Positions 43,039 through 64,000 of a stretch of DNA of 64,000 bases are shown here, in pieces. Numbering within the stretch: position 1 is the first letter of the stretch; each line of letters starts with the position of its first letter. The position numbers and the translations under genes are program-made. The notes below the pieces were generated by a model. The model was given only the letters and a program-made list of their open reading frames with translations. It made no database searches and was not told the DNA's origin. Origin of the DNA: a virus; the IMG/VR virus record IMGVR_UViG_3300010160_000036, positions 12,353 through 76,352 of that record, one strand, 5' to 3'.

Positions 43039-43045
43039 CTAAATA
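43039..43045 (+). promoter_or_regulatory. Late promoter motif CTAAATA heading the modification operon
   Basis: Same motif as before the structural genes, followed by AGGAG SD and ATG 43063. Confidence 0.55.
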
Positions 43046-43062
43046 CTCTTAGGAGTACACAG

Positions 43063-43368
43063 ATGGATACCAAGACCTTAATTGCTGATGCAAAAGCCAG
43101 ATTTAATCACAACAGTGCCAAAGCACAATTAAAAGACAAATATGATGGTAAGTTTATTGTTGCCGATCAAGGAGGACTATGGAAAGCCAATTTAGAAATC
43201 ATTACTATCCTTAGTTCTTATGATGAAGATGATATTATATTAATAGACAATTTTGATAATCCGGTTAAAGTTAACCGCATTGAGTTACTAACTAAATTAA
43301 AAATTACATATAAATCTGTAATGGAAACATGGTATACTGAATGGAAAGAAATAGAGTCTAATCGATGA
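43063..43368 (+). CDS. Hypothetical protein
   Basis: Strong SD; ATGA overlap with the next gene. Confidence 0.75.
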   Translation: MDTKTLIADAKARFNHNSAKAQLKDKYDGKFIVADQGGLWKANLEIITILSSYDEDDIILIDNFDNPVKVNRIELLTKLKITYKSVMETWYTEWKEIESNR

Positions 43369-44165
43369 ACAGAGGCGCAATATTATTTGCGTTCAACTCG
43401 CCAAAGTTTGATTACTATAAAATGGCAGTTGCTACTGCAAAAAGAATCAATCACTTTTTAAATATTCCTGTTACTGTGGTGACAGATGAAAAGTCCATCA
43501 CGGACCAAACATATGTATTTGATAAAGTAATTACGATGACACCTGATCTTAATAACATACGTGAGGGATCTATTTGGATTAATAAAGGTCGTTATCAAGC
43601 ATATGATTATTCACCGTATGATGAAACATTATTATTAGATACAGACTATATGGTCAACTCAAATAAGCTGTTACAAGTATTTAATTATTATGATGATTTT
43701 TGTTGTCATGATACAACTAGTTTTCTAATGCAGCCCGGAGTACCACAAGAGATTCTTAGTGCATATAGTTTTAAAACATTATGGGCTACTATTGTTGCAT
43801 TTAAAAAAACAAATAGAGCTAAACAAATATTTGAATGTTTAGAAATGATTCAAAAAAACTATGATCACTATTGTAATCTACATAGTTTTGTAGGCGGTGT
43901 ATATCGCAACGATTACGCATTGACATTGGCACTTAGAATTGCGAATGGGCATTCGGATAATAAACAAGATATTATTCCTTGGAATTTAATTCATGTGGGT
44001 AAAAACACAAGCATATATAAAAACTTCAATTATGAGTTTAACACTGAATACACAGTTATGTATGATAATTGGCAACGTGGTAAAATTCGTAAAGAATATA
44101 TTACTATCAAAGACATGGACTTTCATGTAATGAATAAATTAAACTTTATGGAGCTTATAACATGA
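43365..44165 (+). CDS. GT-A fold glycosyltransferase-like protein (GT8-like)
   Basis: SPYDETLLLDTDY (DxD), ND-containing motif RNDYA, C-terminal FH..K. Confidence 0.7.
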   Translation: MNRGAILFAFNSPKFDYYKMAVATAKRINHFLNIPVTVVTDEKSITDQTYVFDKVITMTPDLNNIREGSIWINKGRYQAYDYSPYDETLLLDTDYMVNSNKLLQVFNYYDDFCCHDTTSFLMQPGVPQEILSAYSFKTLWATIVAFKKTNRAKQIFECLEMIQKNYDHYCNLHSFVGGVYRNDYALTLALRIANGHSDNKQDIIPWNLIHVGKNTSIYKNFNYEFNTEYTVMYDNWQRGKIRKEYITIKDMDFHVMNKLNFMELIT

Positions 44166-44923
44166 CCAAAGGTTTTGTAATTATGGCACAGGATACTGAA
44201 AAAGTCAGTTATACGAAATGTGCTGAAATGTTAAAAAAATCTATATTAAGCGTGATGGCGGGGGCTAATGTAACTATCATCACAACTGATATGCTACCCC
44301 ACGGCGATCAAGCACCTGGTAGTAATTGGAAATTAATCAATGATTGGCAAGTATATGAAGCTAGCCCATATGATGAAACAATTAAATTAGAAGCAGATAT
44401 GTATCTACCGCGTAATATTGAACACTGGTGGAATATATTGTCAATTAACGATGTAAATATTTGCACGACTATTAGAAACTTTAAAGGTGAGATTTCTCAT
44501 AACAGAGGGTACAGAAAGTTCATTGATGATAACAACTTACCTGACACTTACAATGCTATCACTTACTTTAAAAAGTCAGATACCGCAGAACAGTTCTTTG
44601 GTATTGTTAGAGATGTGTTTGAAAATTGGGAAGATTATAAGACAATAATGAAATGTAATCCACAGGAAGAAGCAACAACTGATTGGGTATATGCCATAGC
44701 AAGTCATATTGTTGGTGTAGAGAAAACCACTCTTCCCGGCTTTACCGAATTTTGTATGACACACATGAAGCAATTCATTAATGACATGCCCACTGAGAAT
44801 TGGACAGACACATTAGTATATGAATGTTTTCCTGATATGATACGCATCAACACTTGTCCACAGTCTTACCCACTTCACTATCATGTTAAGAGCTTTGTTG
44901 ATATAATAGGAGAACAAGTCTAA
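44162..44923 (+). CDS. GT-A fold glycosyltransferase-like protein (paralogue, ExD variant)
   Basis: SPYDETIKLEADM, YFKK...A.QFF, HYH.K; clear similarity to the upstream gene. Confidence 0.65.
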   Translation: MTKGFVIMAQDTEKVSYTKCAEMLKKSILSVMAGANVTIITTDMLPHGDQAPGSNWKLINDWQVYEASPYDETIKLEADMYLPRNIEHWWNILSINDVNICTTIRNFKGEISHNRGYRKFIDDNNLPDTYNAITYFKKSDTAEQFFGIVRDVFENWEDYKTIMKCNPQEEATTDWVYAIASHIVGVEKTTLPGFTEFCMTHMKQFINDMPTENWTDTLVYECFPDMIRINTCPQSYPLHYHVKSFVDIIGEQV

Positions 44924-45258
44924 TGGAACACGTACTTATTTGGGAACCCAAACCAATACCTAAAGTTGAATTTAGATTATATTATGACGACAAGGGTAAA
45001 GTGATATGTTATTCCGGAGAGCAATTAGACGGTAATTATATCATTATAGATGCCGCAACATATGCAGAAGGTCGCCCTGATATAAGGATTATTGATGGTA
45101 AAATATCAAAAGCATCTACAAGTGCAATAGTTACTAAGTTAATTGCAAATGATGTTGAAGGGATTGAGTGTGCATTTGAAGATGTAAGCATAGTGATTGA
45201 TAGTAGTTATATTGGTAAAAAACAAAAATGGAAGTTAGATATACATGAGCTTGGATGA
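44923..45258 (+). CDS. Hypothetical protein
   Basis: TAATG-coupled ORF within the operon. Confidence 0.7.
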   Translation: MEHVLIWEPKPIPKVEFRLYYDDKGKVICYSGEQLDGNYIIIDAATYAEGRPDIRIIDGKISKASTSAIVTKLIANDVEGIECAFEDVSIVIDSSYIGKKQKWKLDIHELG

Positions 45259-46198
45259 TATTATTGACGTAGCAGACTTGGACTGCATTTATCTAAGTTA
45301 TGATGAGCCACAAAAAGAAGAATTTTGGCTTAAAGTAAAGAACATGGTGCCTTGGGCAAAGCGTGTTGATAATGTTAAAGGTAGTGACGCAGCACACAAG
45401 GCTGCAGGTGAAGCAAGTGATACAGAACGATTTATTCTAATTGATGGTGACAACATGCCAGAAGAAAGTTTCTTCAACATTCAGTTAGACTTTACAACTA
45501 AAGACGAAACATTTAGAAAAGCACAGTTTAGATGGAAAGCAATTAACAGTATCAATGGCTTGCGCTATGGTAATGGTGGTATGAGCAGTTGGACAAAGAC
45601 TTACGTGCGTGAAATGCAAACGCATGAGCATCAAACGGAGGGTGATGTTTCACGTATAGCTGACTTTTGTTTAGACAGCAAAGATAATCTATATTGGGCG
45701 ATGCATGATTGTTACAGTACAACATATCCTAACTATACAAGTTTTCAAGCATGGCGTGCAGGTTTCCGTGAAGGTGTTAAAATGAGTTTGAATCGAGGCG
45801 TGCGCCCAACGGTAGATGAATTCAAAGAAACAGTTGCAAGCAGAAATTTAAATAATTTGACCATCTGGCAGAACGTGGGAATAGATGTAGAGAACGGTGA
45901 GTGGGCGATCATGGGAGCACGTATGGGAACTCATATGACTATGCTAACTGATTGGGACGTACATAATGTTCAATGGTTTGATAACTATCCTGCAATGTGG
46001 GAAACAGTTAAAGATGAAGACCCACTAGAACTATCAGAATCATATGGTGTTGAACTAAGTACCAAACTAGGACTACCTATGTGTGTGTTAGATAGAGAAC
46101 AAAGTAAATTCTTTAAACGTCATTATGGATCAAACTTTCATAACAAAGGTCCATTAGTAACTGAGATGGAAGTGATTCGTAAGATTGAAGGTTGGTAA
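45245..46198 (+). CDS. GT-A fold nucleotide-sugar transferase-like protein
   Basis: SYDEP...AH..A....FILIDGDN (DxD) pattern. Confidence 0.55.
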   Translation: MSLDDIIDVADLDCIYLSYDEPQKEEFWLKVKNMVPWAKRVDNVKGSDAAHKAAGEASDTERFILIDGDNMPEESFFNIQLDFTTKDETFRKAQFRWKAINSINGLRYGNGGMSSWTKTYVREMQTHEHQTEGDVSRIADFCLDSKDNLYWAMHDCYSTTYPNYTSFQAWRAGFREGVKMSLNRGVRPTVDEFKETVASRNLNNLTIWQNVGIDVENGEWAIMGARMGTHMTMLTDWDVHNVQWFDNYPAMWETVKDEDPLELSESYGVELSTKLGLPMCVLDREQSKFFKRHYGSNFHNKGPLVTEMEVIRKIEGW

Positions 46199-46860
46199 TG
46201 CAATTATATGATCCATCTAAGAAAGGTACAATCGTAGTTGGACATATGCGTTCAGGTTCTCAATATTTATTGAGTCTAGTTAAACTAGAATTGCAAAAAA
46301 ATAATGTTGAATTTGATGACAACGGAGAATACTTTAAAGATATATTCAGTGCCATTAGATATACTGATAATAGTTACTCATTCTTAAATGTTATTGACAA
46401 AATAAAAGAACAGGACATTGGTACTAATTATAGTGTGGGTACTATTGTCTATCCTAATAGCTTAGATATGATTAGTCAGCATAAGTCAAATTATAATTAT
46501 TTTTCTAATAATTATCATCTTATTAAAATGATTAGAAAAGATGTTATGGCACAATTTATGTCATACATGATATTTATTGAATCAAAGGCACTACATAGCG
46601 GTATAAAATCAATAGACGAAGTTAAAATAAATACTCCTTATACAGCAGGCAGAATTCATATAATATATTATTTAAATAAACTATTAGAATTGGACAGATT
46701 TAAGACTGATACAACTATATACTATGAAGATTTACCGCACTTACCCACACCAGGTCTAACAAAAAATAATTATAATATGACTCCTAAAGAATTTTTTAAA
46801 AATTACGATGATATTGCAAATCAAATTAACGAATTAAATATAACACATTATGAGCGGTGA
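46192..46860 (+). CDS. Sulfotransferase-like protein (P-loop PAPS-binding)
   Basis: 5'-PSB-like HMRSGSQYL, 3'-PB-like IRKDVMAQFMS, C-terminal IYYEDL. Confidence 0.6.
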   Translation: MVMQLYDPSKKGTIVVGHMRSGSQYLLSLVKLELQKNNVEFDDNGEYFKDIFSAIRYTDNSYSFLNVIDKIKEQDIGTNYSVGTIVYPNSLDMISQHKSNYNYFSNNYHLIKMIRKDVMAQFMSYMIFIESKALHSGIKSIDEVKINTPYTAGRIHIIYYLNKLLELDRFKTDTTIYYEDLPHLPTPGLTKNNYNMTPKEFFKNYDDIANQINELNITHYER

Positions 46861-48415
46861 ATACGATCAATTCGCTAGAGATATGCGTGACCGCTTGAAT
46901 GCGGTAAGTCCATCACTATGTCTTGCTAAGTGGCAACAAGTTTCTATACACTTACCTAGTGGATTGACACAGAGTTGCTATCACCCACCTACTCATAAAA
47001 TACCTCTAGAGTTATTGAAAGATAAGCCTAGCGTATTACACAACACCCCAATTAAAATACATGAACGTAAGCAAATGCTTGAGGGAAAAAGACCTGAAGG
47101 TTGTAGTTATTGCTGGAAAGTAGAAGATGCTAAGAGTGATGATCCTAAAGGTCATATGAGTGACAGACATTATCGTAGCAGTGAATGGTGGAATGCACCC
47201 ACATTTGAAGAAGTAACTCAAAACAAGTTTGATTATGATGTTGTCCCTCGATATGTAGAAGTTAACTTTAATCAAGCATGTAACTTTAAGTGTATGTATT
47301 GTAGTCCTCATCTTTCTAGTAGTTGGGAAGAAGAGGTTAAAAAGCACGGTGGTTATCAATTAACCGGTATGATACATAATAACTTAGAAGCATTAGAACA
47401 AAAAGGAATGATGCCACTCAAGGTTGCAAATAAAGACAACCCCTATGTTGAAGCATTCTGGCAATGGTTTCCTGAAATCTATCGCAAATTACGGGTGTTC
47501 AGAATGACAGGTGGCGAGCCACTTATGGACAAAAACACATTCAAAGTGTTAGATTATGTAAATGAAAATCCTCATGGTCAACTTGAAGTAAGTATAACAA
47601 GTAATATGTGTCCGCCGGATCAAAAATTGTTTGATAGGTTTGTGGATAAAGTCAAAGCACTAGAAGAACTACGTACCTACGAAGATAAAGAAAACTTCAA
47701 TGTACATAGCGGTAACAACTGGTATGTAGACAAAGGATTCAAGCACTTTTGGTTGTTTGTATCATTAGACGGCTTTGGTGAGCAAGCAGAATATATGAGA
47801 ACTGGATTAGAGTTCGAACGCATGTTGAATAACGTTAGAACTTTCTTACGTGAAACAAAATATTCTACTGTGAGTTTTATTAACACATTCAATATCATGT
47901 CTATACCAAGTCTGCACAATTTCCTAGCTATGGTTTTAGAATTACGGGCAGAGTTTGGTGGAAGAAGCCAAGTTGAGTTTGAGATTAGTCCTGATCAAAC
48001 TGAGACTGAAAAAGAGAACAACATTGTTCACAAAGTTTATACCCAAAAAAAATATCAACGTGTATTCTTTGATATTCCAATACTAAGATATCCACCTTGG
48101 TTCAACATTCAGAATGCAGGACTATATGGTATCGATGAAGTAGAACGTTGTCTAAAGTATATGGAAGACAACGTACAAGGTGATGACTATCTGGAAACAT
48201 TTGAGGGATTTAAACCGTATGAGATATTGAAAATTAAACGAGACCTTGCTATAATGAAAGAATCTCTACCTCAAGATCAATTACTACTAAATAAAAAGAA
48301 CTTCTATATGTTCATCACTGAATATGATAGACGCAGGCAGACTAATTTTATGGAAACGTTTCCGGAACTAAAAAGTTACTGGAGAGAATGTATCAAAGCA
48401 CACACCAAACATTAA
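46850..48415 (+). CDS. Radical SAM enzyme 1, N-terminal twitch-like domain (C/H type)
   Basis: CNFKCMYC, TGGEP; N-terminal CLAKW..SCYH..CSYCW. Confidence 0.92.
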   Translation: MSGEYDQFARDMRDRLNAVSPSLCLAKWQQVSIHLPSGLTQSCYHPPTHKIPLELLKDKPSVLHNTPIKIHERKQMLEGKRPEGCSYCWKVEDAKSDDPKGHMSDRHYRSSEWWNAPTFEEVTQNKFDYDVVPRYVEVNFNQACNFKCMYCSPHLSSSWEEEVKKHGGYQLTGMIHNNLEALEQKGMMPLKVANKDNPYVEAFWQWFPEIYRKLRVFRMTGGEPLMDKNTFKVLDYVNENPHGQLEVSITSNMCPPDQKLFDRFVDKVKALEELRTYEDKENFNVHSGNNWYVDKGFKHFWLFVSLDGFGEQAEYMRTGLEFERMLNNVRTFLRETKYSTVSFINTFNIMSIPSLHNFLAMVLELRAEFGGRSQVEFEISPDQTETEKENNIVHKVYTQKKYQRVFFDIPILRYPPWFNIQNAGLYGIDEVERCLKYMEDNVQGDDYLETFEGFKPYEILKIKRDLAIMKESLPQDQLLLNKKNFYMFITEYDRRRQTNFMETFPELKSYWRECIKAHTKH

Positions 48416-48423: not shown

Positions 48424-49947
48424 ATGGCAGGCAAGAAACACGAAGAATCATTTGCACAATATAAATCACGACTTATTGACCCAATTAGTGACAGTTATTG
48501 TGCCGCTAAATGGTTGAATGCTACAATTTGGCTAGGTAACGGACAAACTACTAGTTGTCATCACCCATTAGGTCATCAAATTGACGCAAAAGAATTACTC
48601 ACAAATCCGTCTGCAATTCACAATACGCCGCACAAGAAACTAATGCGTAAGATGATGCAGGAAGGTCAGCGCCCTCAAGAATGTGAATATTGCTGGAAGA
48701 TTGAAGACATTGGTCGGGATAACATGAGTGACCGTGTTTATAAAACTGCTGTATTCGAAGAATCAGATATTCTTAAAACTGCTACCGCTGATTGGCAAGA
48801 GAATACGATGTTAAAAACATTAGAGATTTCTTTTGATCGTACTTGTAATTTTGCTTGTTCATATTGCAACCCTTCGTTTAGTACAACATGGGTTAAAGAC
48901 ATTCACAAATTTGGCCCATATCGTAACATTGACGGTGATGCACGTAGTCACTTTATTAATGAAGCTGACCATGCTAAACCACTACCGGAAGATATTAACC
49001 CATACAGTCAAGCGTTCTGGCGTTGGTGGGAAGAAGGTCTTGCAGACAATTTAGAAGAAATTCGCATTACGGGTGGTGAACCACTTATGGCTCCCGGTGT
49101 TTGGAAGTTGTTTGAGTGGTTTCGTAATAACCAAGAACGGGCGATAAATCGTCCAGATGGTAAGGTATTGCGCTATGCTATCAATAGTAACTTAGTTCCT
49201 AAAGATGATATTATGGACAAATTGATAGAGTACAGTCAGTTTGTTCCTTACATGGAAGTCTATACAAGTTGTGAATCATTTGGTGCTCATGCTGAATACA
49301 TTCGTGATGGACTTGATTGTAACAAATGGATTCATAACTTAGGTAGATTACACACTGAAGGTAATATTAAAAAGACACACATGATGATGACTATCAACAG
49401 CTTGTGTTTGGCTAGCATTGTACAATTTATGGACCAGATGATGGAATTTAAAAAGATTCATAATACAGTTTATCCCACAATGAGTTTGAACATCTTGCGT
49501 TTCCCTAGCTTTCAAAGTTGTGCTATGCTGCCAACAGAGATTCGTCAGAAATATAAAGACCTGCTACAAGTATGGTTAGACAATCAGATTGCTATGGATT
49601 TCCGCACTACTGATGGTAAACAAATGTTTATGAGCATTGAACGTGAACAAACACAACGATTGATTGACTACCTTGACGTTATCAAGACACCACACAAGAA
49701 TGTTAAAGACATTGAACAGAATCGTAGAGACTTTAAGCAGTTCTATGCTCAGTATGATGTCCGTCGTGGTAAAAGCTTCCGTAATACTTTCCCACCAGAG
49801 TTTGTTGCATTCTACGATAGTATTCAAACAGAGTTACCAACGGCGGATGAAATCATCACACAGAATTATCGTCAAGGGGTTGATTTAATCCCTGATCATC
49901 CACCGGAAGATCCTAGTAAAGATGTATTCTTTAACCCAGATTTATAA
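48424..49947 (+). CDS. Radical SAM enzyme 2, N-terminal twitch-like domain (C/H type)
   Basis: CNFACSYC, TGGEP; CAAKW..SCHH..CEYCW. ATG 48424 follows a TAAGGA SD. Confidence 0.92.
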   Translation: MAGKKHEESFAQYKSRLIDPISDSYCAAKWLNATIWLGNGQTTSCHHPLGHQIDAKELLTNPSAIHNTPHKKLMRKMMQEGQRPQECEYCWKIEDIGRDNMSDRVYKTAVFEESDILKTATADWQENTMLKTLEISFDRTCNFACSYCNPSFSTTWVKDIHKFGPYRNIDGDARSHFINEADHAKPLPEDINPYSQAFWRWWEEGLADNLEEIRITGGEPLMAPGVWKLFEWFRNNQERAINRPDGKVLRYAINSNLVPKDDIMDKLIEYSQFVPYMEVYTSCESFGAHAEYIRDGLDCNKWIHNLGRLHTEGNIKKTHMMMTINSLCLASIVQFMDQMMEFKKIHNTVYPTMSLNILRFPSFQSCAMLPTEIRQKYKDLLQVWLDNQIAMDFRTTDGKQMFMSIEREQTQRLIDYLDVIKTPHKNVKDIEQNRRDFKQFYAQYDVRRGKSFRNTFPPEFVAFYDSIQTELPTADEIITQNYRQGVDLIPDHPPEDPSKDVFFNPDL

Positions 49948-51344
49948 TGACAAACAAAATAATCCCTGTATGGGAACACGCTAAGCCGCACAAAGATAGT
50001 AAGAACAAGGTGTTCTGTATGGCACCTTGGACTCATACTTATATCAGTCCGCAATCTGAAAGACGATTGTGCTGTGCCTCACGTGAAGAACACTCATTTC
50101 AAAAACAATATATTGATAGTAGTAACGATTCAAAGTATGGAACTGTTACTGAAAGTAAGACAGCACTAGATGACTACCAACCAGTAAGTTTAAAAGAACA
50201 CTGGAATAGTGAATACATGAAAGACATTCGTGTGAAGCTAATGCGCGGCGAAGAGATTCCTCAATGTGATGTATGCAACAAGAACTTGTTGATGGAAGGT
50301 TATAGTTATCGTGGCTGGTTTACCGGCACCCTATTCAAAGATAAGATAGAAGAAGCTTTTGATAAGACAGATGACACTGGTTATACAACAATGGAACCAA
50401 TAAGTTTTGATTATCGCTTTAGTAATCTATGTAACTTTAAGTGCCGTATGTGCGGTGAGCAATTATCTAGTTCATGGGAAACTGAAAAGAAAGTAAATAA
50501 TCTTTGGAACGAAAAGAATCAACCATTCATGATTCCTGAAATCAAATCAGCAATGAAAACTTTCCAAGAAGAAGTTGTTGAAGTTGAATTTCGTGATGCA
50601 GTAAGTCGTGGCATTGTAGAAGAAATGTATTGGGTCGGTGGTGAGCCATTAATGTACGATATTCACTGGTGGACACTAGAAGAAATGTTAAAAAATGGTT
50701 CTTCTAAGAATTGCTACATGCGTTATAATAGTAATTTAAGTCGTGTTCAATTTGGTCAAAAGAATCTGTATGATTATCTTCCATTGTACAAAGATTGGAT
50801 GATGTGTGCTAGCATTGATGGTACAGGCGAGATTGTAGAATACATTCGCACGGGTATCAAGTGGGACAAATGGCTTGAAAATTTTAAGAAAGGTCTAGAA
50901 CTACCCAATGGCAAAGACAAGATGATACTTGACTTGACATTAACCGCACCCGGTATGTTCTCGCTTAAAGAGTTGTTTGACTTGAGTATTGAGTTAGATG
51001 TTAAAATTGAAACTAAAACGACATTTGGCTTTCATGCTGATATTATGTGGACCCCATTAAGTTGGCCACGTGAAATATTAGACGAAGTGATTGATGATAT
51101 CCTTGCATATATTACACCACGCGCTACTTGGAAGCAAGCAACATTAATTGGTAACTTAGAAGCACTAAAGAATACACGTAAGACACATGAAGAAGAATGG
51201 CCTGATACTTATAAGCAAGCCGCATTGAACGGCAAGAATTGGGTCAAGAGATTAGAAAGTATCCGTGGAGATACAGATGTTACAATGCGTAGTATATACA
51301 GTCGCAATTCAAAACTATTGCAATGGTGGGACAACATAGGATGA
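49947..51344 (+). CDS. Radical SAM enzyme 3, N-terminal twitch-like domain (CC type)
   Basis: CNFKCRMC, VGGEP; CMAPW..LCC..CDVC. Confidence 0.92.
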   Translation: MTNKIIPVWEHAKPHKDSKNKVFCMAPWTHTYISPQSERRLCCASREEHSFQKQYIDSSNDSKYGTVTESKTALDDYQPVSLKEHWNSEYMKDIRVKLMRGEEIPQCDVCNKNLLMEGYSYRGWFTGTLFKDKIEEAFDKTDDTGYTTMEPISFDYRFSNLCNFKCRMCGEQLSSSWETEKKVNNLWNEKNQPFMIPEIKSAMKTFQEEVVEVEFRDAVSRGIVEEMYWVGGEPLMYDIHWWTLEEMLKNGSSKNCYMRYNSNLSRVQFGQKNLYDYLPLYKDWMMCASIDGTGEIVEYIRTGIKWDKWLENFKKGLELPNGKDKMILDLTLTAPGMFSLKELFDLSIELDVKIETKTTFGFHADIMWTPLSWPREILDEVIDDILAYITPRATWKQATLIGNLEALKNTRKTHEEEWPDTYKQAALNGKNWVKRLESIRGDTDVTMRSIYSRNSKLLQWWDNIG

Positions 51345-56286: not shown

Positions 56287-57607
56287 TTTTAATCCAGTTG
56301 AAATGGCTAAGAATAGCAAAACGTTTTGCATTTTTCCATGGATACAACAATATGTAGGACCACCGGGAGATGTTAAGCCTTGCTGTGTGTATGACAATCA
56401 AGCTGAAATAGGTAGTTTAAAAGAAAACACATTAGCAGAAATCTGGAACAACGATAAAACAAAACAAATGCGATTGAATTTTCTTAATGGAATTGAAGAA
56501 CCCAGTTGTAGTATATGTAACCGCCGCGCTGATTTGGGTCATGCACATAAGAACGAGTACAACAAAATGTTTTTTGACAATGATGAAGAAATTCAAAAAA
56601 TTGTAGCAAGTACAAATGCCGACGGATCATTGGATGAGCACAAACTATATTATATTGATGTTAGATATAATAATCTATGTAATTTAAGTTGTCGTAGTTG
56701 TGCTCCGCATTTTAGTACAAGTTGGGTAATGGATCATCGCAAGTTGTACAACTTAGATGTAAGGCGTGAAAAAGATGATGGGTTTCAATTTCCGGGTAAA
56801 ACAGAAGGCCAAGCACTAGAAGAAATACTACCACACCTAGCTACAGCAAAGATGATTTATTTTGCAGGCGGTGAGCCATTGATGCAAAAAGAACATTATG
56901 AAGTTCTTAACAAGCTAATTGAATTGGGTAATACTGATTTAGAGATACGTTACAATACAAACTTCAGCAATTTTAAATTAAAGAAATATGACAATGTATT
57001 AGAGTATTGGAAGAAGTTCTCAAATGTACACGTATATGCTAGCTTAGATGGTAGCCACGAAAGGGGTGAGTACTGGCGTAATGGCATAGATTGGAAACAA
57101 GTTGTAGCAAACCGTAAACAAATGATGGAAGAATGTCCACATGTGCATTTTATGATTTCATATACTCTAAGCTGGCCCAATGCGTTTAACTTAGTAGAGT
57201 TTCATAAAGAGTGGGTAGAATTAGGTTATCTTAGACCGGAAGACATATTGTTAAATCCATTAGACACACCACCATACTATTGTTTAAAGAACATTCCAGA
57301 TTGGAAAAAGCGTGAAATTGAAGAGGCACTACAAAAGAATATAGTTTGGCTTAAATCTTTTGGACATCCTTACGGAATCATAAGTATGTATGAAACAGCA
57401 ATTAAATTTATGTGGGACGAAAACGGACAGTATCATAATGGCATCAATGAAAGCCTGAAAGAGTTTAATAAGATTACTACACGATTGGATGAGATACGTA
57501 GCCAAAGTTTTTTTGACGTATACCCTGAGCACATGAATATGAAGAATTACCTGATTTATAATAATTTGGATGTTGAATTTAGTGACAACAAATTTAAGAA
57601 ATACTAA
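56276..57607 (+). CDS. Radical SAM enzyme 8, N-terminal twitch-like domain (CC type)
   Basis: CNLSCRSC, AGGEP; CIFPW..GDVKPCC..IGSL..CSIC. Confidence 0.92.
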   Translation: MTNDFNPVEMAKNSKTFCIFPWIQQYVGPPGDVKPCCVYDNQAEIGSLKENTLAEIWNNDKTKQMRLNFLNGIEEPSCSICNRRADLGHAHKNEYNKMFFDNDEEIQKIVASTNADGSLDEHKLYYIDVRYNNLCNLSCRSCAPHFSTSWVMDHRKLYNLDVRREKDDGFQFPGKTEGQALEEILPHLATAKMIYFAGGEPLMQKEHYEVLNKLIELGNTDLEIRYNTNFSNFKLKKYDNVLEYWKKFSNVHVYASLDGSHERGEYWRNGIDWKQVVANRKQMMEECPHVHFMISYTLSWPNAFNLVEFHKEWVELGYLRPEDILLNPLDTPPYYCLKNIPDWKKREIEEALQKNIVWLKSFGHPYGIISMYETAIKFMWDENGQYHNGINESLKEFNKITTRLDEIRSQSFFDVYPEHMNMKNYLIYNNLDVEFSDNKFKKY

Positions 57608-58860
57608 TGGACGAAAAGAAATTATTTAAGATAAGAGATGAAACAAGTAATACGTTTTGTCTTGCAAAATTCCATGAGGCAAGTATCTGGGTTTACTCAG
57701 GTAAGATTGCCAGTTGCCATTACACTCCGTTTATTCAAGTAGGTAATACAGTAGACACTTTCTACAACCCTACTGAAAAACGTGAACAACAAAAGAAAAT
57801 GTTGGCAGGAGAACAGCCACCTGCATGTGATAGTTGCTGGCGATATGAAAATTTAGGATTACGTAGTGACAGAACACGTAAGAGTTTAAGTTTCACAAAC
57901 CACTTGGCCGCAGAAGATTATAAGAATCCCAACTATGTATTCAAACCTAAAGCATTAGAGTTAGCATTTCAAAACACATGTAATCTAGCTTGTAGCTATT
58001 GTAGTCCTCAATTCAGTACTAGCTGGATTAACGATATCAAAGTGAATGGTGTATATCAAGGAATCATTACTGACGACCGTAGACACTATCAGAAAGATAT
58101 CAACGAACTCAATGAAATGATTGACCCTCCTGATATGACATTGTTCTGGGAGTGGTTTGAAAGTGTTGCTACTAGTTTAGAATCTATTCGTGTGTCAGGT
58201 GGAGAGCCATTAATGCACGAAGAAGTTTTTCGTGTATTTGAAATGATGACAGAGATGAACTCAGATATTGAATGCGTGATACACAGCAACCTTTGCCAAA
58301 AGCCTGTAATCATGGATAGATTCTTTGATAAGATTAGTGGATTGACTAATTTACGTATGAATATCAGTAATGAATCCGCTAATGAAACAGCAGAATTCAT
58401 TCGTGAAGGTATGGTCTACGCTGAATGGTTAGAAAACATTGAACGATTAGCAAACAGCACAGTTAAAGAATTTAGTGTAAGTACAACAGTAAGTGCAATC
58501 GCATTGCAATCGCTTGAACAAATGTATTTGGACATTATTACTATTCGCAACCGTTCTAAAGTTAAACCCTATATCTCTATTAATATGGTTGACAAACCAG
58601 ACTTTCAAGGATTTGCTTGCTTAACACGTGAAGAACGTGATTTCTATATTAACAAATACACTAAGTTTTATGAGTCAATCAAAGATGAGTTATTACCTGT
58701 AGAACACGAACATTGTGCTAGACTACTTAAATTCTTAGATGAAGGTTTCATTAAAGAAACTCAACCACAATTGCGTAAAGACAGTGATATATTCTTTGAA
58801 CAATATACACAACGTAGAAATAAACCAGACAATCTAGCAAAATATATAGGATTAAAATAA
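57607..58860 (+). CDS. Radical SAM enzyme 9, N-terminal twitch-like domain (C/H type)
   Basis: CNLACSYC, SGGEP; CLAKF..SCHY..CDSCW. Confidence 0.92.
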   Translation: MDEKKLFKIRDETSNTFCLAKFHEASIWVYSGKIASCHYTPFIQVGNTVDTFYNPTEKREQQKKMLAGEQPPACDSCWRYENLGLRSDRTRKSLSFTNHLAAEDYKNPNYVFKPKALELAFQNTCNLACSYCSPQFSTSWINDIKVNGVYQGIITDDRRHYQKDINELNEMIDPPDMTLFWEWFESVATSLESIRVSGGEPLMHEEVFRVFEMMTEMNSDIECVIHSNLCQKPVIMDRFFDKISGLTNLRMNISNESANETAEFIREGMVYAEWLENIERLANSTVKEFSVSTTVSAIALQSLEQMYLDIITIRNRSKVKPYISINMVDKPDFQGFACLTREERDFYINKYTKFYESIKDELLPVEHEHCARLLKFLDEGFIKETQPQLRKDSDIFFEQYTQRRNKPDNLAKYIGLK

Positions 58861-60032
58861 TGGAACAAATGTATGAAGTAGAAAATGTAAAAAGATTACA
58901 TATAGAATTATCTAGTAGATGTAATGCTAATTGTCCTGCATGTAGTAGAAACTATTCAGGTGGTCCTGTTGCAGATGGTTTAGAACTAACTGACTTGTCA
59001 CTAGATGACATTAAGCGTATGGTTCCCGAAGAGATAGCAAAGAATTTAATTGGTATAAATTTCTGTGGAAACGTGGGTGATCCGGGTATGGCGCCAGACT
59101 TAATACCTATATTAGAATATTTTAGAGAACATTCTCCTAAAATTGTTCAACAGCTTAGAACTAACGGTGGTATGCGTAATGAAAAATTTTGGACGTCACT
59201 GGGAAACTTCTTTGTAAATCAATCACCTGCAAGAGACAATCATTTGTTCAGCAAAGCCGGAGTTGTGTTTAGTGTGGATGGATTGGAAGATACTAATCAT
59301 ATATACAGACGAGGTGTTATTTGGGAAAAACTAATCAAAAATATGAGAGCATATAGCGCAACAGGCGCATTTGCTGTTTGGGAATGGTTGTTATTTGAAC
59401 ACAATGAGCATCAAGTTGAAGAAGCTAGAATATTATCAAAAGAATTAGGGTTTGAGTTTATTGTTAAAAATCCATTGGGATTTGGAGAGTATGAAGATAC
59501 ATTGAATGGAATTAATGTATACGGCAAAGATGGTGACTATGAATATACTATTTGGCCTTCTAAGTATACTGGTTTCAGAAAAGATCCTCCGTTTGGAAAC
59601 AAAGTTGATTTCAAATTTATGAATCAAAAAAGAATTCCTATTTTATCCGAATTTAGTAAAGAATTAGAGAAGAATTCAGCGATAGTTTGTAAGTCAATCG
59701 AACACAAAGAATCAAAAGAAATATACATATCAGCAAATGGTTATATGTTACCGTGTTGTTTCTTAGGCGGGGTGTTTGGTCAGTTTAATAGTTCATATTC
59801 TCGTCATCAATTTAACAAGATGATTAATGATTATGGATTAGAGGTGTTTAACTTAAAGAATCAATCAATATTAGACATTATTCAAGGCTCTGATTTTAGT
59901 AAGTTCTTCTTAGATGGTTGGAAAGCAGATACTATTGAGAATGGCAAACTGTTATATTGTTTAGAAACATGCGGACATAAATCTGCAATGGATAAGTTGT
60001 ATAGTAAAAAAATTATAGAGGTAAACAAATGA
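58860..60032 (+). CDS. Radical SAM enzyme 10, C-terminal twitch/SPASM-like domain
   Basis: N-terminal CNANCPAC, GNVGDP, TNG; C-terminal C..YISANGYMLPCC..CLETC. Confidence 0.92.
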   Translation: MEQMYEVENVKRLHIELSSRCNANCPACSRNYSGGPVADGLELTDLSLDDIKRMVPEEIAKNLIGINFCGNVGDPGMAPDLIPILEYFREHSPKIVQQLRTNGGMRNEKFWTSLGNFFVNQSPARDNHLFSKAGVVFSVDGLEDTNHIYRRGVIWEKLIKNMRAYSATGAFAVWEWLLFEHNEHQVEEARILSKELGFEFIVKNPLGFGEYEDTLNGINVYGKDGDYEYTIWPSKYTGFRKDPPFGNKVDFKFMNQKRIPILSEFSKELEKNSAIVCKSIEHKESKEIYISANGYMLPCCFLGGVFGQFNSSYSRHQFNKMINDYGLEVFNLKNQSILDIIQGSDFSKFFLDGWKADTIENGKLLYCLETCGHKSAMDKLYSKKIIEVNK

Positions 60033-60763
60033 AAATAGGTGTATTTGGTGATAGTTTTGCAGATAGAACGCCGTACAATCCAGAGAGCCCCTTCAAAGAA
60101 GATGAGTCGTGGATTGCCGATATGGAATCAGCCGGACACAAGATAACATCGTACGGAAAAACAGGAACTTCTACGTGGTATTCATACGAACAATTTTTAG
60201 CTCATCATGAACAATTCGAGTGGATAATATTTTGTTATTCGTCATTGCATCGTATTCATCACTTGCCTGAAGGTCTTGAAGATTTAAGTTTCTTGACATC
60301 CCCGGATGACTTGTATGCATATGGAAGAAATAAAGGATTGTCTCAGCAACAAGAACTAGAAATAGTTAGAATATTAACTGGACATATTCCAAATATTAGT
60401 CCATCGTTTGACCAATTTGTGAAACAAAAAATATTTGATGATATCAACAATATTTGCAGAAATAAAAATATTAAGTTGGTTAATTTACTAACATTTGATG
60501 ATAGGAAAGATAAAACCTATGCTATTAATTTAGATAGCCGAAGTGGAGATTGCCTATACAATTTATTTTCTGTAAGTAAAAAAGAGTTACCTACTATGGG
60601 AATATTAGATAATAGATGGTGTCATTTGTCTAAAGAGTTTAATACGATACTATCTACTATATTGTTTAATGCATTAGCAGGCGATGGTAAAACTATATTT
60701 GACTTGTATAAACATAAAGATTTTACATATGACGAAGAAATCACAGCAAGATACAATATATGA
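60029..60763 (+). CDS. SGNH/GDSL-fold hydrolase or acyltransferase-like protein
   Basis: GVFGDSF block I, G..GTS block II, C-terminal CHLS...N. Confidence 0.6.
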   Translation: MKIGVFGDSFADRTPYNPESPFKEDESWIADMESAGHKITSYGKTGTSTWYSYEQFLAHHEQFEWIIFCYSSLHRIHHLPEGLEDLSFLTSPDDLYAYGRNKGLSQQQELEIVRILTGHIPNISPSFDQFVKQKIFDDINNICRNKNIKLVNLLTFDDRKDKTYAINLDSRSGDCLYNLFSVSKKELPTMGILDNRWCHLSKEFNTILSTILFNALAGDGKTIFDLYKHKDFTYDEEITARYNI

Positions 60764-61584
60764 CAAGACGAATAGTTATAGCCGGCGATAGTTTTACGTT
60801 TGGGCATGGTTGTTCAGATAGAATATACTATTACGATGAGCAATCTGAATCATTTGTGGGGGATCCTACTCATTTTCATAATCCTAAACCTAGTGACTTC
60901 TGTTGGCCGGCATTATTACAACAAAGATATCCTGATCTAGAAGTTATTAATTTAGCCAACCCGGGTAATTCTAATCAAGGAATATTTCGTGACATAGTAA
61001 AGTATTTCAATAATAATCCGTGTAATGACAATGATATATTAATGTTTCATGGAACATTAGCTGACAGACTAGAAATCGCATTAGCTGACAACCCTGAGGT
61101 ACCTGCGTCTTGGGTTATTGGATATGACCATCAGAGTCAAATGGATAGTACTAGGGATTATAATCTAGCAAAAAAAATGTATCTTACTCATTTATACAAT
61201 GATGCTATTGGAGTTAACTTATCCATGACTGCTATGTTAGCATCATATGGGTTTGCTACCGGATTTAATATTAAATTTGTTTGGAGTTTGCCATTGATAG
61301 TAACAATAGATCAACCTAATGACCTTAAAACTCTGCTAAACTTTGACACGTTTAAATTTATTCCTCGCCGCAAATTTATGTGGAAGGGGTTTCCAATGCA
61401 TAGAATGATCTCTCCGGAATTGCACCAACACAGAGTAGATACAATTATGAATCATGACTTTTCTGGTATAAAAAATAGTGAATTCAATGCAGAATGTGTT
61501 GCACCGGATAGGCATGTCAATAACAAGGGACATTCTATCTATTTGGAAAAAGTAATACTACCCTCACTACAAAATCTTCTATAA
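60760..61584 (+). CDS. SGNH/GDSL-fold hydrolase or acyltransferase-like protein
   Basis: AGDSFTFG, NLANPGNSN, DRHVN.KGH. Confidence 0.7.
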   Translation: MTRRIVIAGDSFTFGHGCSDRIYYYDEQSESFVGDPTHFHNPKPSDFCWPALLQQRYPDLEVINLANPGNSNQGIFRDIVKYFNNNPCNDNDILMFHGTLADRLEIALADNPEVPASWVIGYDHQSQMDSTRDYNLAKKMYLTHLYNDAIGVNLSMTAMLASYGFATGFNIKFVWSLPLIVTIDQPNDLKTLLNFDTFKFIPRRKFMWKGFPMHRMISPELHQHRVDTIMNHDFSGIKNSEFNAECVAPDRHVNNKGHSIYLEKVILPSLQNLL

Positions 61585-61587
61585 ATA
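61580..61587 (+). promoter_or_regulatory. Exact T4 late promoter TATAAATA, internal to the operon
   Basis: Overlaps the upstream stop codon; ATG 61593 follows 5 nt later. Confidence 0.55.
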
Positions 61588-61592: not shown

Positions 61593-62897
61593 ATGAAAAA
61601 AACATTTCCTATACAAAATGATGCTGCCTGCCTATATAAATGGGCATGGAGCACGTTATTCTTAAGCCGCGGCACAACTTCAAGCTGTCATCGAGGTCGT
61701 CATTGGAAATTGACAGAAGATAATTTCATGGACTTTCACAATCACCACGGTAAACTTGCTGACAGAGAAAAAATGGCAACCGGTGATTGGCCGGGCAATG
61801 GATGTGAATATTGCAGAGATGTTGAAAATGCAGGTGGTAAAAGTGATAGAACGGGATTTGTCAATGAGTCAATTGAATTGTTGCCACCTGAGTTTGAAGG
61901 ATTTGTACCCAAAGGAACTGAATTTGATCATATCCCTTTAAAAGTTAGTCCTACTTTACTTGAAGTCTATTTCAATAACGTATGCAATCAATCATGCGTA
62001 TACTGTACCCCCGGATTTAGTAGTAAGATTGAACAAGAAGTTCGTAAACATGGACCTAGTGAATTTAATAAAGATTACAGTGAATGGAATCCAAATTCAA
62101 AGTATGAATTATACAAAGAAAAGTTTTGGGAATGGATGGAAAAAAATAGTGAGCACGTGCAAATTTTACAAGTATTGGGCGGAGAGCCATTATATCAAAA
62201 AGAATTTGAACAGTGCTTAGATTTCTTTGACAAACACCCTAGACCTAATCTAGTATATCGCACATTTAGTAATTTAAAGCATGATCCAGAAAAATTCAAA
62301 GCTAAAATTCAACGTGTACAAAACCTAATAGATCAGGGCAAATTAAAACGTATGGAATTTGTCTGTAGTATTGATTGCTGGGGACCAGAGATTGAATATG
62401 TACGTGATGGATTAATATTAGTTGAGTGGGAACAAAACATGAATACATTGTTACACTCGTCAGGGGTAGGAGTATTAGTTCATGCTACACTCACTGTACT
62501 AACACTACCTACATTACATCAGTTAATAGAAAAAACAAATGAGTGGAGAAAGATTAAAGACTCGGTTGGTATTAATTGGAATACGGTAGTAAGACCGTCT
62601 ACATTTAATCCATACAATTTTGGAAAATACCTAGCACCGTTTATTGATGCGCCTATACGAGCATTAGAAAATTATAGCAACTCTGTAGAAAAAGAAAAAT
62701 TACAAACTCATTTAATGGGAATACAACAACAATTATTAACCTCCCCTGTAAACAAAAAAGAAGTCAATGATTGTGCAAATTTTTTAGATGACATAGACAA
62801 GCGAAGAAGTAGAGATTGGAGAGCAATATTCCCACAGATCGTAGAAATAGTAAATACTATTAACAAAGAGGAAACAGATTATGTTCAAGTGGATTAG
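61593..62897 (+). CDS. Radical SAM enzyme 11, N-terminal twitch-like domain (C/H type)
   Basis: CNQSCVYC, LGGEP; CLYKW..SCHR..CEYC. Confidence 0.92.
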   Translation: MKKTFPIQNDAACLYKWAWSTLFLSRGTTSSCHRGRHWKLTEDNFMDFHNHHGKLADREKMATGDWPGNGCEYCRDVENAGGKSDRTGFVNESIELLPPEFEGFVPKGTEFDHIPLKVSPTLLEVYFNNVCNQSCVYCTPGFSSKIEQEVRKHGPSEFNKDYSEWNPNSKYELYKEKFWEWMEKNSEHVQILQVLGGEPLYQKEFEQCLDFFDKHPRPNLVYRTFSNLKHDPEKFKAKIQRVQNLIDQGKLKRMEFVCSIDCWGPEIEYVRDGLILVEWEQNMNTLLHSSGVGVLVHATLTVLTLPTLHQLIEKTNEWRKIKDSVGINWNTVVRPSTFNPYNFGKYLAPFIDAPIRALENYSNSVEKEKLQTHLMGIQQQLLTSPVNKKEVNDCANFLDDIDKRRSRDWRAIFPQIVEIVNTINKEETDYVQVD

Positions 62898-62985
62898 AAA
62901 TTTATATCATAGTATAAAATCGGAAATTCGTTATCGTAAACGACTAAAAGAATTACGCAAAAGAGACCCATTTATCTATAAATGA
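62881..62985 (+). CDS. 34-aa basic peptide (not in ORF track)
   Basis: MFKWIRNLYHSIKSEIRYRKRLKELRKRDPFIYK*. GAGG SD upstream; ATGA overlap with the next gene. Confidence 0.7.
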   Translation: MFKWIRNLYHSIKSEIRYRKRLKELRKRDPFIYK

Positions 62986-63806
62986 TGAATTTAGTTAATT
63001 TATTAGATTCAGAGTCATTAGATGATGTAACTGGGTATACTAAAACAGAACATGTAATCTGGACTGATGAGCCATATAGAATTGATTTTGCATCACGTGA
63101 AGAAATTAAACATGCTAGTACATGGGAAGGCCCTAACTTTGATTACTATTTTAATAAATTAGGATTTAGATTCTCAGATGATATACCTAATAGTATAGAT
63201 ATGGGTGCATTTGGTTGTAGTTTTACAGCTGGATTAGGATTACCTGACAATTATCTTTGGCATAACTTACTAGCAAGTGAACTACAGTTAACTTCATTGA
63301 ATTTTGGTGTGTCAGGCGCATCTTGCAAATCGATTGCAGACTTGTTTTTAATTACATCTAAACATATACAAATGAAACACGCTGTGTTTTTATTACCTAG
63401 CTATAATAGAATGCAAATTGGAATAAAACATATAAAAAGAGATATGATGACTAACTTATCTTTGGTTCCCGGCTTGCAAAGTGAGTTGACACACAACTAT
63501 GGAGTAGATGTTGAAATGCTATATAAATATGTACCCAATGAAGAACAAATTAAAACTTTTAAAAACGACATATACTTGGTAGACTACATTGCAAAGAACA
63601 GAAACATTAAAGTATATTTCTCATCATGGGACAGAGAAACATATAATTTATTTAATAACTTAAAATTAAAAAATAGTATAGTATTGCCGCTTTGGAGTTC
63701 AGAAAGCAAAGAACAAGCTGAATCAGATTTAGCTAGAGATAAAAAACATCCCGGACCTATACATCATAAACAATGGGCTGATATTGTTATGGAATTTATT
63801 AAATGA
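62982..63806 (+). CDS. SGNH-fold hydrolase or acyltransferase-like protein
   Basis: N.LGFR, FGCSFT.G.G, NFGVSGAS, RDKKHPG (DxxH). Confidence 0.7.
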   Translation: MMNLVNLLDSESLDDVTGYTKTEHVIWTDEPYRIDFASREEIKHASTWEGPNFDYYFNKLGFRFSDDIPNSIDMGAFGCSFTAGLGLPDNYLWHNLLASELQLTSLNFGVSGASCKSIADLFLITSKHIQMKHAVFLLPSYNRMQIGIKHIKRDMMTNLSLVPGLQSELTHNYGVDVEMLYKYVPNEEQIKTFKNDIYLVDYIAKNRNIKVYFSSWDRETYNLFNNLKLKNSIVLPLWSSESKEQAESDLARDKKHPGPIHHKQWADIVMEFIK

Positions 63807-64000
63807 ACTATATAGGAATATCCTCAGGATTTCACGATGCCGCACTAAGTGTTATAGATGACAAAGGTAATATATTGTTTGCCGGTCACAGTGAACGCTA
63901 TAATAAAGATAAACATACAAAGCACTTGTGTTATGATATAGTTGAAGATGCACTATCATATACAACCTCACGTGATATCAAGATTCATTACTATGAACGC
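63803..64000 (+). CDS. Carbamoyltransferase (NodU/CmcH/TobZ family), N-terminal part, runs off the window
   Basis: Manual translation MNYIGISSGFHDAALSVIDDKGNILFAGHSERYNKDKH matches the family's GI...HD.A......G.I....ER..K.K start; ATGA overlap. Confidence 0.85.
   Translation, partial: MNYIGISSGFHDAALSVIDDKGNILFAGHSERYNKDKHTKHLCYDIVEDALSYTTSRDIKIHYYER

Follow-up and report, generated by a model that had tools for sequence, protein, structure and literature searches.

The window analyzed here is a 64,000-nucleotide (nt) stretch of the viral record IMGVR_UViG_3300010160_000036 in IMG/VR (positions 12,353 to 76,352) and forms the end of a viral contig of 76,352 bp. Directly downstream of two fiber-type genes, positions 43063 to 64000 of the window hold an operon of 21 open reading frames (ORFs) of ≥60 amino acids (aa) plus one 34-aa ORF (62881 to 62985), all on the + strand, that is a candidate pathway for assembling and tailoring a sugar-bearing product. 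Neighboring ORFs overlap by 1 to 28 nt, and the only gaps measure 8 nt (61584/61593) and 84 nt, the latter being filled by the 34-aa ORF. Because the window reaches the end of the contig, the operon runs off it and is truncated. The ORF list bears out the description in an earlier note, made from the letters of the DNA, of 22 overlapping or abutting same-strand ORFs that continue to the contig end. The eleven radical S-adenosylmethionine (SAM) ORFs counted there by their CxxxCxxC motif are recovered as well, with one motif per ORF in eleven ORFs. ORFs are referred to below by their first coordinate.

Ten of the eleven radical SAM ORFs are full-length members of the NCBIfam family NF033640 (N_Twi_rSAM, twitch domain-containing radical SAM protein), with scores of 175.5 to 360.4 bits (E value, 1e-51 to 1e-107) against a curated cutoff of 170 bits. 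They are called N-twitch radical SAM enzymes here, and their ratios of nonsynonymous to synonymous substitution rates (dN/dS) are given where they were noted individually. The eleven genes are as follows.

46850-48415, +, N-twitch radical SAM of the "core" type in subfamily B, adjoining a GT-A glycosyltransferase gene; NF033640, 283 bits
48388-49947, +, N-twitch radical SAM, subfamily B; NF033640, 290 bits; dN/dS, 0.046
49947-51344, +, N-twitch radical SAM, subfamily A; NF033640, 300 bits; SPASM at residues 24 to 111, radical SAM core at 157 to 315
51323-52519, +, N-twitch radical SAM, subfamily A; NF033640, 345 bits; nearest window paralog to most Bdellovibrionales copies
52516-53802, +, N-twitch radical SAM, subfamily B; NF033640, 287 bits; dN/dS, 0.046
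53793-54980, +, N-twitch radical SAM, a divergent member of subfamily A whose N terminus is shortened; NF033640, 175.5 bits over model positions 49 to 395; four twitch Cys and CxxxCxxC retained
54970-56286, +, N-twitch radical SAM, subfamily A; NF033640, 346 bits; SPASM at residues 14 to 80
56276-57607, +, N-twitch radical SAM, subfamily A; NF033640, 360 bits; as a query, it retrieved 18 IMG/VR loci
57607-58860, +, N-twitch radical SAM, subfamily B; NF033640, 241 bits; dN/dS, 0.042
58860-60032, +, radical SAM with a conventional C-terminal SPASM domain; CxxxCxxC at residue 21; SPASM at residues 284 to 350, 29.2 bits against a cutoff of 21.5
61593-62897, +, N-twitch radical SAM, subfamily B; NF033640, 224 bits; own ortholog group

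In the N-twitch ORFs, Pfam places a SPASM-type domain at residues 12 to 111, ahead of the Radical_SAM core. Residues C18, C37, C78, C81, C135, C139, C142, and G198-G-E-P201 are invariant in all ten; that is, the four Cys of the N-terminal twitch domain, the CxxxCxxC core, and the GGEP SAM-binding motif are kept throughout. The N-twitch segment aligns to the twitch domain of BtrN in a sequence match against the PDB (E value, 2.6e-5). ORF 58860 scores 24.9 bits against Radical_SAM, under the 29.5-bit cutoff, and 46.7 bits against NF033640, of which it is not a member.

A tree of 75 family members splits the ten N-twitch enzymes into two deep subfamilies, B (46850, 48388, 52516, 57607, and 61593) and A (49947, 51323, 53793, 54970, and 56276). 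Within the tree, each paralog of the window falls in its own ortholog group together with copies from other phage contigs (support, 96 to 100). The paralogs are 18 to 30% identical to each other, and orthologs in the closest relatives are mostly 64 to 96% identical; dN/dS is 0.03 to 0.11, these values being approximate, with dS saturated. The separate ortholog groups, the divergence, and the low dN/dS together indicate old, separately maintained enzymes rather than recent copies. The 46850 type is the first radical SAM gene after the homolog of the glycosyltransferase gene 45245 in most of the loci compared, either directly or past inserted genes, and the single-copy radical SAM enzyme of the Ralstonia jumbo phage RsoM2USA is 34% identical to it.

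For the ORFs other than the radical SAM genes, searches of Pfam, PHROGs, and NCBIfam yielded essentially no matches, and profile searches against PDB sequences with the glycosyltransferase-like ORFs yielded none. Because the sequence libraries were silent on these ORFs, two of them (43365 and 45245) were folded with AlphaFold2 (AF2), and the confidence of the models is given as the predicted local distance difference test score (pLDDT). The genes at the upstream end of the operon are the following.

43063-43368, +, 101-aa small protein, partner of the GT8-like pair; no match in Pfam, PHROG, or NCBIfam
43365-44165, +, GT8-like, retaining-type GT-A glycosyltransferase; DxD is D92-T-D94; His254; AF2 pLDDT, 88.7
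44162-44923, +, paralog of the GT8-like enzyme 43365; E-A-D replaces DxD; 19% identity over the full length
44923-45258, +, 111-aa small protein; no family match (Pfam, PHROG, NCBIfam)
45245-46198, +, GT-A (GT2-like) glycosyltransferase domain at residues 3 to 165 plus a helical C-terminal domain with no assigned fold; AF2 pLDDT, 91.3; the most conserved gene of the operon

The 43365 model matches glycogenin-1 with Z 17.0 (VIA) and a root mean square deviation of 3.2 Å over 197 residues (Foldseek E value, 2e-8), followed at a Z of ∼14 by GlyE, LARGE1, UGGT, Skp1 galactosyltransferase, and LgtC. Across 30 sequences of both the 43365 and 44162 lineages, D94 and H254 are invariant. ORF 44162 keeps the invariant residues of 43365 apart from the change of the first Asp to Glu, and the pair is present in RsoM2USA. 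Neither protein has a Glyco_transf_8 or other Pfam, NCBIfam, or PDB-sequence match; their GT8 membership is at the level of the modeled fold only. The GT-A domain of 45245 matches, at a Z of 8 to 10, B4GALNT1, a Leptospira glycosyltransferase, WrtF, SunS/ThuS, COLGALT1, STIV A197, and PBCV-1 A64R, and its DxD residues D67 and D69 are near invariant in 56 sequences. Relatives of 45245 give weak PF00535 matches only (E value, 0.001 to 0.004). The family is large, forming >8000 clusters when grouped at 90% identity and >1100 when grouped at 50%, and its members also occur fused behind GT-B domains of the EryCIII/GT28/UDPGT type in proteins of ∼715 to 810 aa. Thus, the GT-A fold that the earlier note had predicted for three ORFs, and had proposed to check, is found for 43365 (Z, 17.0) and 45245 (Z, 8 to 10), with 44162 being a paralog of the former. 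Of the two small proteins, 43063 is kept at the same position in phage loci at 27 to 35% identity and is absent from bacterial loci, and 44923 is kept in phage loci at 29 to 64% identity.

The remaining genes include those assigned in the earlier note to sulfation, acyl transfer, and carbamoylation.

46192-46860, +, accessory 222-aa protein, sulfotransferase-like; PF09037 in 12% of the members of the nearest ESM-Atlas cluster
60029-60763, +, SGNH-like protein with N-terminal FGDSFA; block I G and S invariant; joint-profile match to GDSL structures
60760-61584, +, SGNH-like protein with GDSFTFG; Pfam Lipase_GDSL E value of 0.003, under the cutoff; fast evolving (dN/dS, 0.19)
62881-62985, +, 34-aa basic peptide ending in DPFIYK; intact ORF with an invariant C-terminal ...RKRDPFIY(K)
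62982-63806, +, SGNH-like protein with an FGCSFT block I and a DxxH block V; the fastest-evolving gene of the operon (dN/dS, 0.39)
63803-64000, +, 66 N-terminal residues of a NodU/CmcH-type carbamoyltransferase, the contig ending within the gene

These assignments fare unequally. The carbamoyltransferase stub is, over its 66 residues, 100% identical to the start of a 498-aa ortholog (L002:17438-18934) that contains both Carbam_trans_N (E value, 1e-33) and Carbam_trans_C (E value, 4e-47), and this full-length ortholog supports the NodU/CmcH assignment. The proposal of three SGNH-fold proteins is moderately supported: the block I G-x-S is invariant in the trio, and a joint profile matches structures of the GDSL family only (E value, 5.7e-5 to 0.006, over the N-terminal 80 residues), but the Pfam match is under the cutoff, and the block V DxxH is clear in 62982 alone. 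For the sulfotransferase-like protein 46192, the ESM-Atlas cluster is a weak lead, whereas no Pfam, NCBIfam, or PDB match was obtained; the gene appears to be accessory, having no homolog among the related loci compared.

The 34-aa peptide is intact in 20 related loci, with one further weak match (L103), and its C terminus is invariant even where the adjoining enzymes are only 40% identical. It is present wherever the carbamoyltransferase is present, except in L099, and is missing from RsoM2USA, from L010/L011, and from all bacterial loci that have the radical SAM genes. Because the peptide tracks the carbamoyltransferase and not the radical SAM enzymes, it is better regarded as a partner of the carbamoyltransferase step than as a substrate of the array. 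In L010, which belongs to a related phage without the carbamoyltransferase, a gene of the Asp/Asn beta-hydroxylase family lies within the array (L010:14856-15650). In close relatives, the carbamoyltransferase gene is followed by one for a 1565-aa protein (L114:64-4761; G001:C1:76463-81160), indicating that the operon continues past the contig end. A unit of ∼65 aa with the motif FDFSW-x-PD...PPYIY-x-FGNQW is repeated in tandem at least 10 times in this protein, and DPFIY is common to the repeats and the 34-aa peptide. The C-terminal domain of the protein is related to 45245 (25% identity over 174 aa), with the DxD position apparently lost, and the protein has no PDB sequence match. The repeat protein follows the carbamoyltransferase in L002 to L009, and its start is seen in L012 to L018.

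The start of the operon is marked by a promoter-like motif that it has in common with structural genes of the phage.

43039-43045, +, promoter-like CTAAATA motif (putative late type), 24 nt upstream of the first ORF, 43063

The degenerate form [A/C]TAAATA occurs 12 times on the + strand, and seven of these occurrences fall in the scarce gaps between genes, 9 to 43 nt ahead of a gene start. The genes behind it include the structural genes 10804, 18189, 40037, and 40832 as well as 43063, so that the motif positions agree with the earlier statement that the operon starts at the same TAAATA motif as the structural genes. Across the whole window, CTAAATA is depleted (11 found versus 20 expected), as is TATAAATA (5 found versus 11.7 expected). 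The internal TATAAATA that the earlier note had pointed out does exist, at 61580 to 61587, but it stops 5 nt short of the ATG of 61593 and so cannot supply that gene with a leader. Sigma-70-like promoters and terminator-like sites were found inside the operon at chance level in a scan, and the gap between the last fiber gene and 43063 has no terminator-like site. Late timing and cotranscription with the late genes would fit the shared promoter-like motif and the nonenriched terminators.

The module is widespread among phages. The 18 IMG/VR loci found with 56276 as the query carry the same operon, with arrays of 10 to 14 N-twitch radical SAM genes in the near clade and, in a distant clade, a glycosyltransferase core with 4 or 5 radical SAM genes, one of which is a fused double enzyme. 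The fused gene encodes 851 aa (L012:9878-12433), and the same gene occurs in L013 to L018. Scans with the 45245 family added many more viral contigs, along with phage contigs misbinned as metagenome-assembled genomes (MAGs). The common gene order is a giant protein, a 206-aa protein, fiber genes, a small ORF, the GT8 pair, a small ORF, GT-A (1 to 4 paralogs), and radical SAM genes. It recurs in dozens of viral contigs and is kept in the IMG/VR loci, in the misbinned MAG contigs, and in RsoM2USA, and the position behind the fiber genes holds across phages whose giant proteins are only 23 to 41% identical. RsoM2USA, the only isolate with the module, carries a fiber-like gene, the GT8 pair, a GT-A gene (41% identical to 45245), one subfamily B radical SAM gene (34%), and a second GT-A paralog. 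The co-occurrence of these genes in relatives, named beforehand as a test, is therefore found both in related viral loci and in this isolate. Relatives also carry genes for A-type iron-sulfur (Fe-S) carriers. Three radical SAM genes, one with an N-terminal twitch region, were seen in the KVP40-like Vibrio phage K566 (L109 161548-165950), away from fiber genes and with no 45245 homolog.

The 45245 family is also found in genuine bacterial chromosomes, namely, those of Rhodobacterales and Bdellovibrionales. In Rhodobacterales isolates, the homolog adjoins GT-B and GT4 genes and an FkbM methyltransferase gene. A conserved cluster in Rhodobacterales and Geminicoccaceae (L058, L055, L048, L066, and L079) combines the 45245 homolog, GT-B, GT4, and the FkbM methyltransferase with large caspase-domain proteins that have Sel1/TPR or peptidoglycan-binding domains. 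In Bdellovibrionales, the homolog occurs with GT2 genes and a sugar epimerase/dehydratase gene, among the housekeeping genes for MetH, FtsK, and DnaB, and is often adjacent to N-twitch and SPASM radical SAM genes; homologs of 58860 accompany N-twitch enzymes in 13 Bdellovibrionales loci. Three Bdellovibrionales genomes each contain ∼12 to 25 N-twitch radical SAM genes over the cutoff. One array comprises ∼17 in ∼30 kb (G006:C1:745500-775000; L110 and L111), and others lie in G008:C3 and G007:C9 (L112 and L113). GT2 and carbamoyltransferase genes adjoin some of these arrays, and none of the arrays includes repeated small, precursor-like ORFs. The arrays are interspersed with genes for proteins of 250 to 780 aa; three were searched, with no PDB sequence match. 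As judged from these homologs, the enzyme set is not phage specific.

Taken together, the folds, the GT-B fusions, and the bacterial neighborhoods point to sugar transfer. With moderate confidence, the operon can be read as encoding a cytoplasmic pathway in which a sugar-bearing product is assembled and heavily modified; no transmembrane segment was found in any operon protein. The claim of the earlier note that a glycan is built and decorated thus stands as the best reading by virtue of the GT-A folds and the co-occurrence in relatives, although its sulfotransferase part is weak. We infer the chemistry of each radical SAM enzyme, as well as the timing, the product, and the acceptor, along the following lines. 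The GT8-like pair (43365 and 44162) and the GT2-like 45245 would build the scaffold by moving sugars from nucleotide sugars onto an acceptor. Each of the ten N-twitch enzymes would then cleave SAM at its CxxxCxxC cluster, and the 5'-deoxyadenosyl radical would take H from one particular position of the product per enzyme. As in BtrN-type dehydrogenases, the electron would probably pass to the auxiliary cluster, fully ligated by Cys, of the N-terminal twitch domain. Given a single such cluster and a BtrN-like twitch segment, radical oxidation, epimerization, or dehydration at distinct sugar positions is proposed, and the outcome could be keto, epimerized, dehydrated, or C-C-linked sugars. The SPASM enzyme 58860 may contribute a further radical step, the three SGNH-fold proteins may add or remove acyl groups, the NodU/CmcH-type carbamoyltransferase may O-carbamoylate the product together with its 34-aa partner peptide, and the accessory 46192 may add sulfate. 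The carbamoyltransferase and the SGNH enzymes fit a decoration of hydroxyl groups. Relatives vary in content, with 1 to 4 GT-A paralogs and 1 to 14 radical SAM genes, in the manner of O-antigen loci, which suggests that the product is probably a diversifying surface structure. The constant position behind the tail fiber genes and the common promoter-like motif make a virion fiber or adhesin protein the most likely acceptor.

Several points weigh against the sugar pathway or its link to the virion. In PDB sequence searches, the radical SAM core best matches enzymes that act on ribosomally synthesized and posttranslationally modified peptides (RiPPs), namely, cyclopropylglycine synthase (8vpo) and SkfB, and most characterized SPASM/twitch radical SAM enzymes act on peptides or proteins. 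To our knowledge, no member of NF033640 has a known product, substrate, or activity. The operon contains no genes for sugar-nucleotide synthesis, a flippase, or a polymerase, and its timing is deduced from a 7-nt motif alone. The bacterial versions have no fiber genes nearby, which implies that the module does not need a virion. Finally, mass spectrometry of RsoM2USA virions covered ten abundant bands only and is silent on glycans (PMC8504454).

Some of this evidence would also suit other products. The same soluble enzymes might act at the cytoplasmic face on lipid-linked precursors of lipopolysaccharide (LPS) or capsule, altering the cell surface rather than the virion and, for example, blocking superinfection or keeping progeny from sticking to debris. 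Such remodeling of the host envelope was proposed for the glycosyltransferases of the host recognition cluster by the authors of the pelagimyophage study (PMC7029224), and it is in keeping with the LPS glycosyltransferases among GT8 enzymes (the LgtC match has a Z of 14), with the ordinary GT2 and GT4 genes that adjoin the bacterial homologs, and with a gene content as variable as that of O-antigen loci. It is nonetheless rather unlikely, since the operon encodes no membrane-associated or polyprenol-linked enzyme, flippase, ligase, or transmembrane segment, its promoter-like motif is common to the late structural genes, and its place behind the fibers is strict across phages with giant proteins 23 to 41% identical. 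Another candidate is a free small molecule for use during infection: a soluble metabolite, either a pseudo-oligosaccharide or of nucleoside type, carrying many modifications as aminoglycosides and Nod factors do. It leaves the conserved linkage to fiber genes unaccounted for. The absence of an exporter, a resistance gene, and a scaffold-forming enzyme (cyclase or aminotransferase) from the operon also makes this quite unlikely. What speaks for it is that BtrN, whose twitch domain is the closest to that of the N-twitch enzymes, belongs to aminoglycoside synthesis; that members of the 45245 family occur fused to GT-B partners of the GT1/EryCIII/UDPGT type, the usual glycosylators of small molecules; that the set of NodU-type carbamoyltransferase, SGNH, and sulfotransferase-like proteins recalls Nod-factor tailoring; and that the bacterial versions stand alone amid housekeeping genes.

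Alternatively, a protein or peptide might be matured as in RiPP pathways, with the radical SAM enzymes cross-linking or epimerizing residues and the glycosyltransferases glycosylating them afterwards; a virion protein or the 1565-aa repeat protein would be the candidates. The affinities of the radical SAM core to 8vpo and SkfB, the peptide substrates of most SPASM/twitch enzymes, and the protein or peptide glycosyltransferases among the top matches (glycogenin, GlyE, UGGT, SunS, and ThuS) are compatible with this, as is the next gene in relatives, with its ≥10 repeats of ∼65 aa (W-x-P...PPYIY-x-FG) and the DPFIY that also ends the 34-aa peptide. However, no window operon ORF matches an RRE (RiPP recognition element) or PqqD, and the peptide and the repeat protein both go with the carbamoyltransferase end of the operon, being absent from RsoM2USA, L010/L011, and all Bdellovibrionales loci with radical SAM genes. 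As the main explanation, RiPP maturation was rejected because the only conserved peptide follows the carbamoyltransferase and the bacterial arrays lack repeats of small ORFs, and it is considered decidedly unlikely. Hypermodification of DNA, in which the glycosyltransferases, the carbamoyltransferase, and the radical SAM enzymes would decorate hydroxymethylated bases of the phage genome, is very improbable. Glycosylation of phage DNA is established, carbamoylation of 5-hydroxymethylcytosine also occurs, and all operon enzymes are soluble, but the module lies in the structural region behind a structural-gene-type promoter motif. Furthermore, the thymidylate synthase family is represented in relatives by a single gene, which matches PF00303 end to end (∼355 bits); a second copy that could act as the hydroxymethylase is missing, and the same enzyme set occurs in bacterial chromosomes beside ordinary glycosyltransferases.

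A bolder extension of the sugar-tailoring pathway, which we think unlikely as a whole, would make the N-twitch arrays a new enzyme class that edits a finished glycan, or a glycan on a protein, position by position, for example by epimerizing, oxidizing, or cross-linking sugars. The class would be common to jumbo phages and predatory Bdellovibrionota, both of which would use a hypervariable coat in contact with Gram-negative prey. In the clade of the window phage, the acceptor could then be the W-x-P...PPYIY-x-FG repeats of the 1565-aa protein, with the GT8 enzymes starting the chain on its Tyr and the DPFIYK peptide acting as a mimic or primer.

The genes upstream of the operon are those of a myovirus: a gp46/47-like nuclease, a gp55-like late sigma factor, baseplate hub and wedge proteins, a gp25-like protein, a 6145-aa ORF, and fiber-type genes. 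The baseplate wedge is nearest, at ∼31% identity, to those of jumbo myoviruses (Sinorhizobium phage Phosso, Agrobacterium phage Atu_ph07, Serratia phage BF, Salicola phage SCTP-2, and Xanthomonas phage XaC1), and by these sequence affinities the phage is a jumbo myovirus akin to the RsoM2USA/Atu_ph07/Serratia BF group. A classical T4-like or pelagimyophage identity was ruled out because the wedge is closest to jumbo myoviruses. The "Moraphage" lineage (PMC12619734) was weighed as well and did not match; radical SAM genes go unmentioned in that paper. One relative in IMG/VR, with a record length of 352 kb, is rated complete. Almost the whole window sequence was also found in freshwater metagenome runs from at least two other studies, so that the habitat is freshwater. 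Searched at the DNA level, isolated phages gave no match to the operon.

The 6145-aa ORF (21587 to 40024) accounts for 29% of the window length. ORF361 of RsoM2USA (2541 aa) is its counterpart by position, with a weak local match (29% identity over 119 aa); ORF361 and ORF356, the counterpart of the 206-aa protein, are virion proteins by mass spectrometry (PMC8504454). The fiber-type genes next to the operon are as follows.

40832-43013, +, two fiber-type genes directly upstream of the operon, 405 aa and 317 aa; the 405-aa product has a C-terminal intramolecular-chaperone/Peptidase_G2 domain (Pfam PF11962)

N-terminal parts are kept upstream of the same module in many loci. In the longer one (40832 to 42049), with its autoproteolytic Peptidase_G2/intramolecular-chaperone C terminus, the first 78 residues are 51 to 56% identical to fiber genes of the distant-clade locus L012, and the remainder is variable.

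With >8000 clusters in the 45245 family, this module is among the more common unexplained gene sets of large aquatic phages, and the present phage spends >20 kb on it. In it, virus-encoded glycosyltransferases stand beside the largest tandem sets known for an unassayed radical SAM family, and new carbohydrate radical chemistry is probably concealed there. The occurrence of the enzyme set in predatory Bdellovibrionota as well suggests a surface or attack-related glycoconjugate common to both, and because RsoM2USA (latent period, 270 min) can be cultured and carries a minimal version of the module (ORF348 to ORF354), the question is directly testable.

Among known systems, the closest likeness of the radical SAM ORFs is to NF033640 itself, in an N-terminal four-Cys domain followed by the CxxxCxxC core with full-model scores over the cutoff. 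The family is known as a catalog entry, and tandem arrays of 10 to 14 copies are unanalyzed in print; a literature search found no paper on N-terminal-twitch radical SAM enzymes. With BtrN, the twitch dehydrogenase of butirosin synthesis, the window enzymes have in common a twitch domain with one auxiliary cluster whose ligands are all Cys, and a sugar-like substrate is proposed for both. However, BtrN is a 250-aa protein with a C-terminal twitch domain, whereas the window enzymes are 395 to 521 aa long and combine an N-terminal twitch domain with an extra helical part at the C terminus. Nod factors are tailored by NodC (GT2), NodU (carbamoyltransferase), NodH (sulfotransferase), and NodL (acetyltransferase), and the operon resembles this set in joining a GT-A glycosyltransferase with enzymes that would decorate an oligosaccharide with carbamoyl, acyl, and perhaps sulfo groups. 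Nod pathways, in turn, have no radical SAM enzymes, and the operon has neither a NodC-like membrane synthase nor NodB.

Cytoplasmic, virus-encoded GT-A enzymes that adjoin structural genes are also the basis of virion glycosylation in mycobacteriophages of the Che8 type, where the capsid and tail tube are modified (PMC10527164), and in the chlorovirus PBCV-1 (A64R, enzymes of the capsid glycan). Both A64R and the Che8 glycosyltransferase are among the fold matches of 45245, but those systems are without the radical SAM, carbamoyltransferase, or SGNH set. The earlier note knew of no characterized phage pathway of this makeup; indeed, no explanation is in print, but radical SAM cassettes have been mentioned. 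In pelagimyophages, the host recognition cluster is hypervariable, lies behind a giant VrlC-like protein and fibers, and contains glycosyltransferases and radical SAM "cassettes" (PMC7029224), and a T4-like environmental viral genome carries 12 radical SAM genes and an A-type Fe-S carrier (PMC5332604). These regions resemble the operon in their placement behind a giant protein and fibers and in the radical SAM cassettes themselves. They differ in that those studies list the genes without analysis and in that the baseplate of the window phage is nearest those of jumbo myoviruses and its habitat is freshwater.

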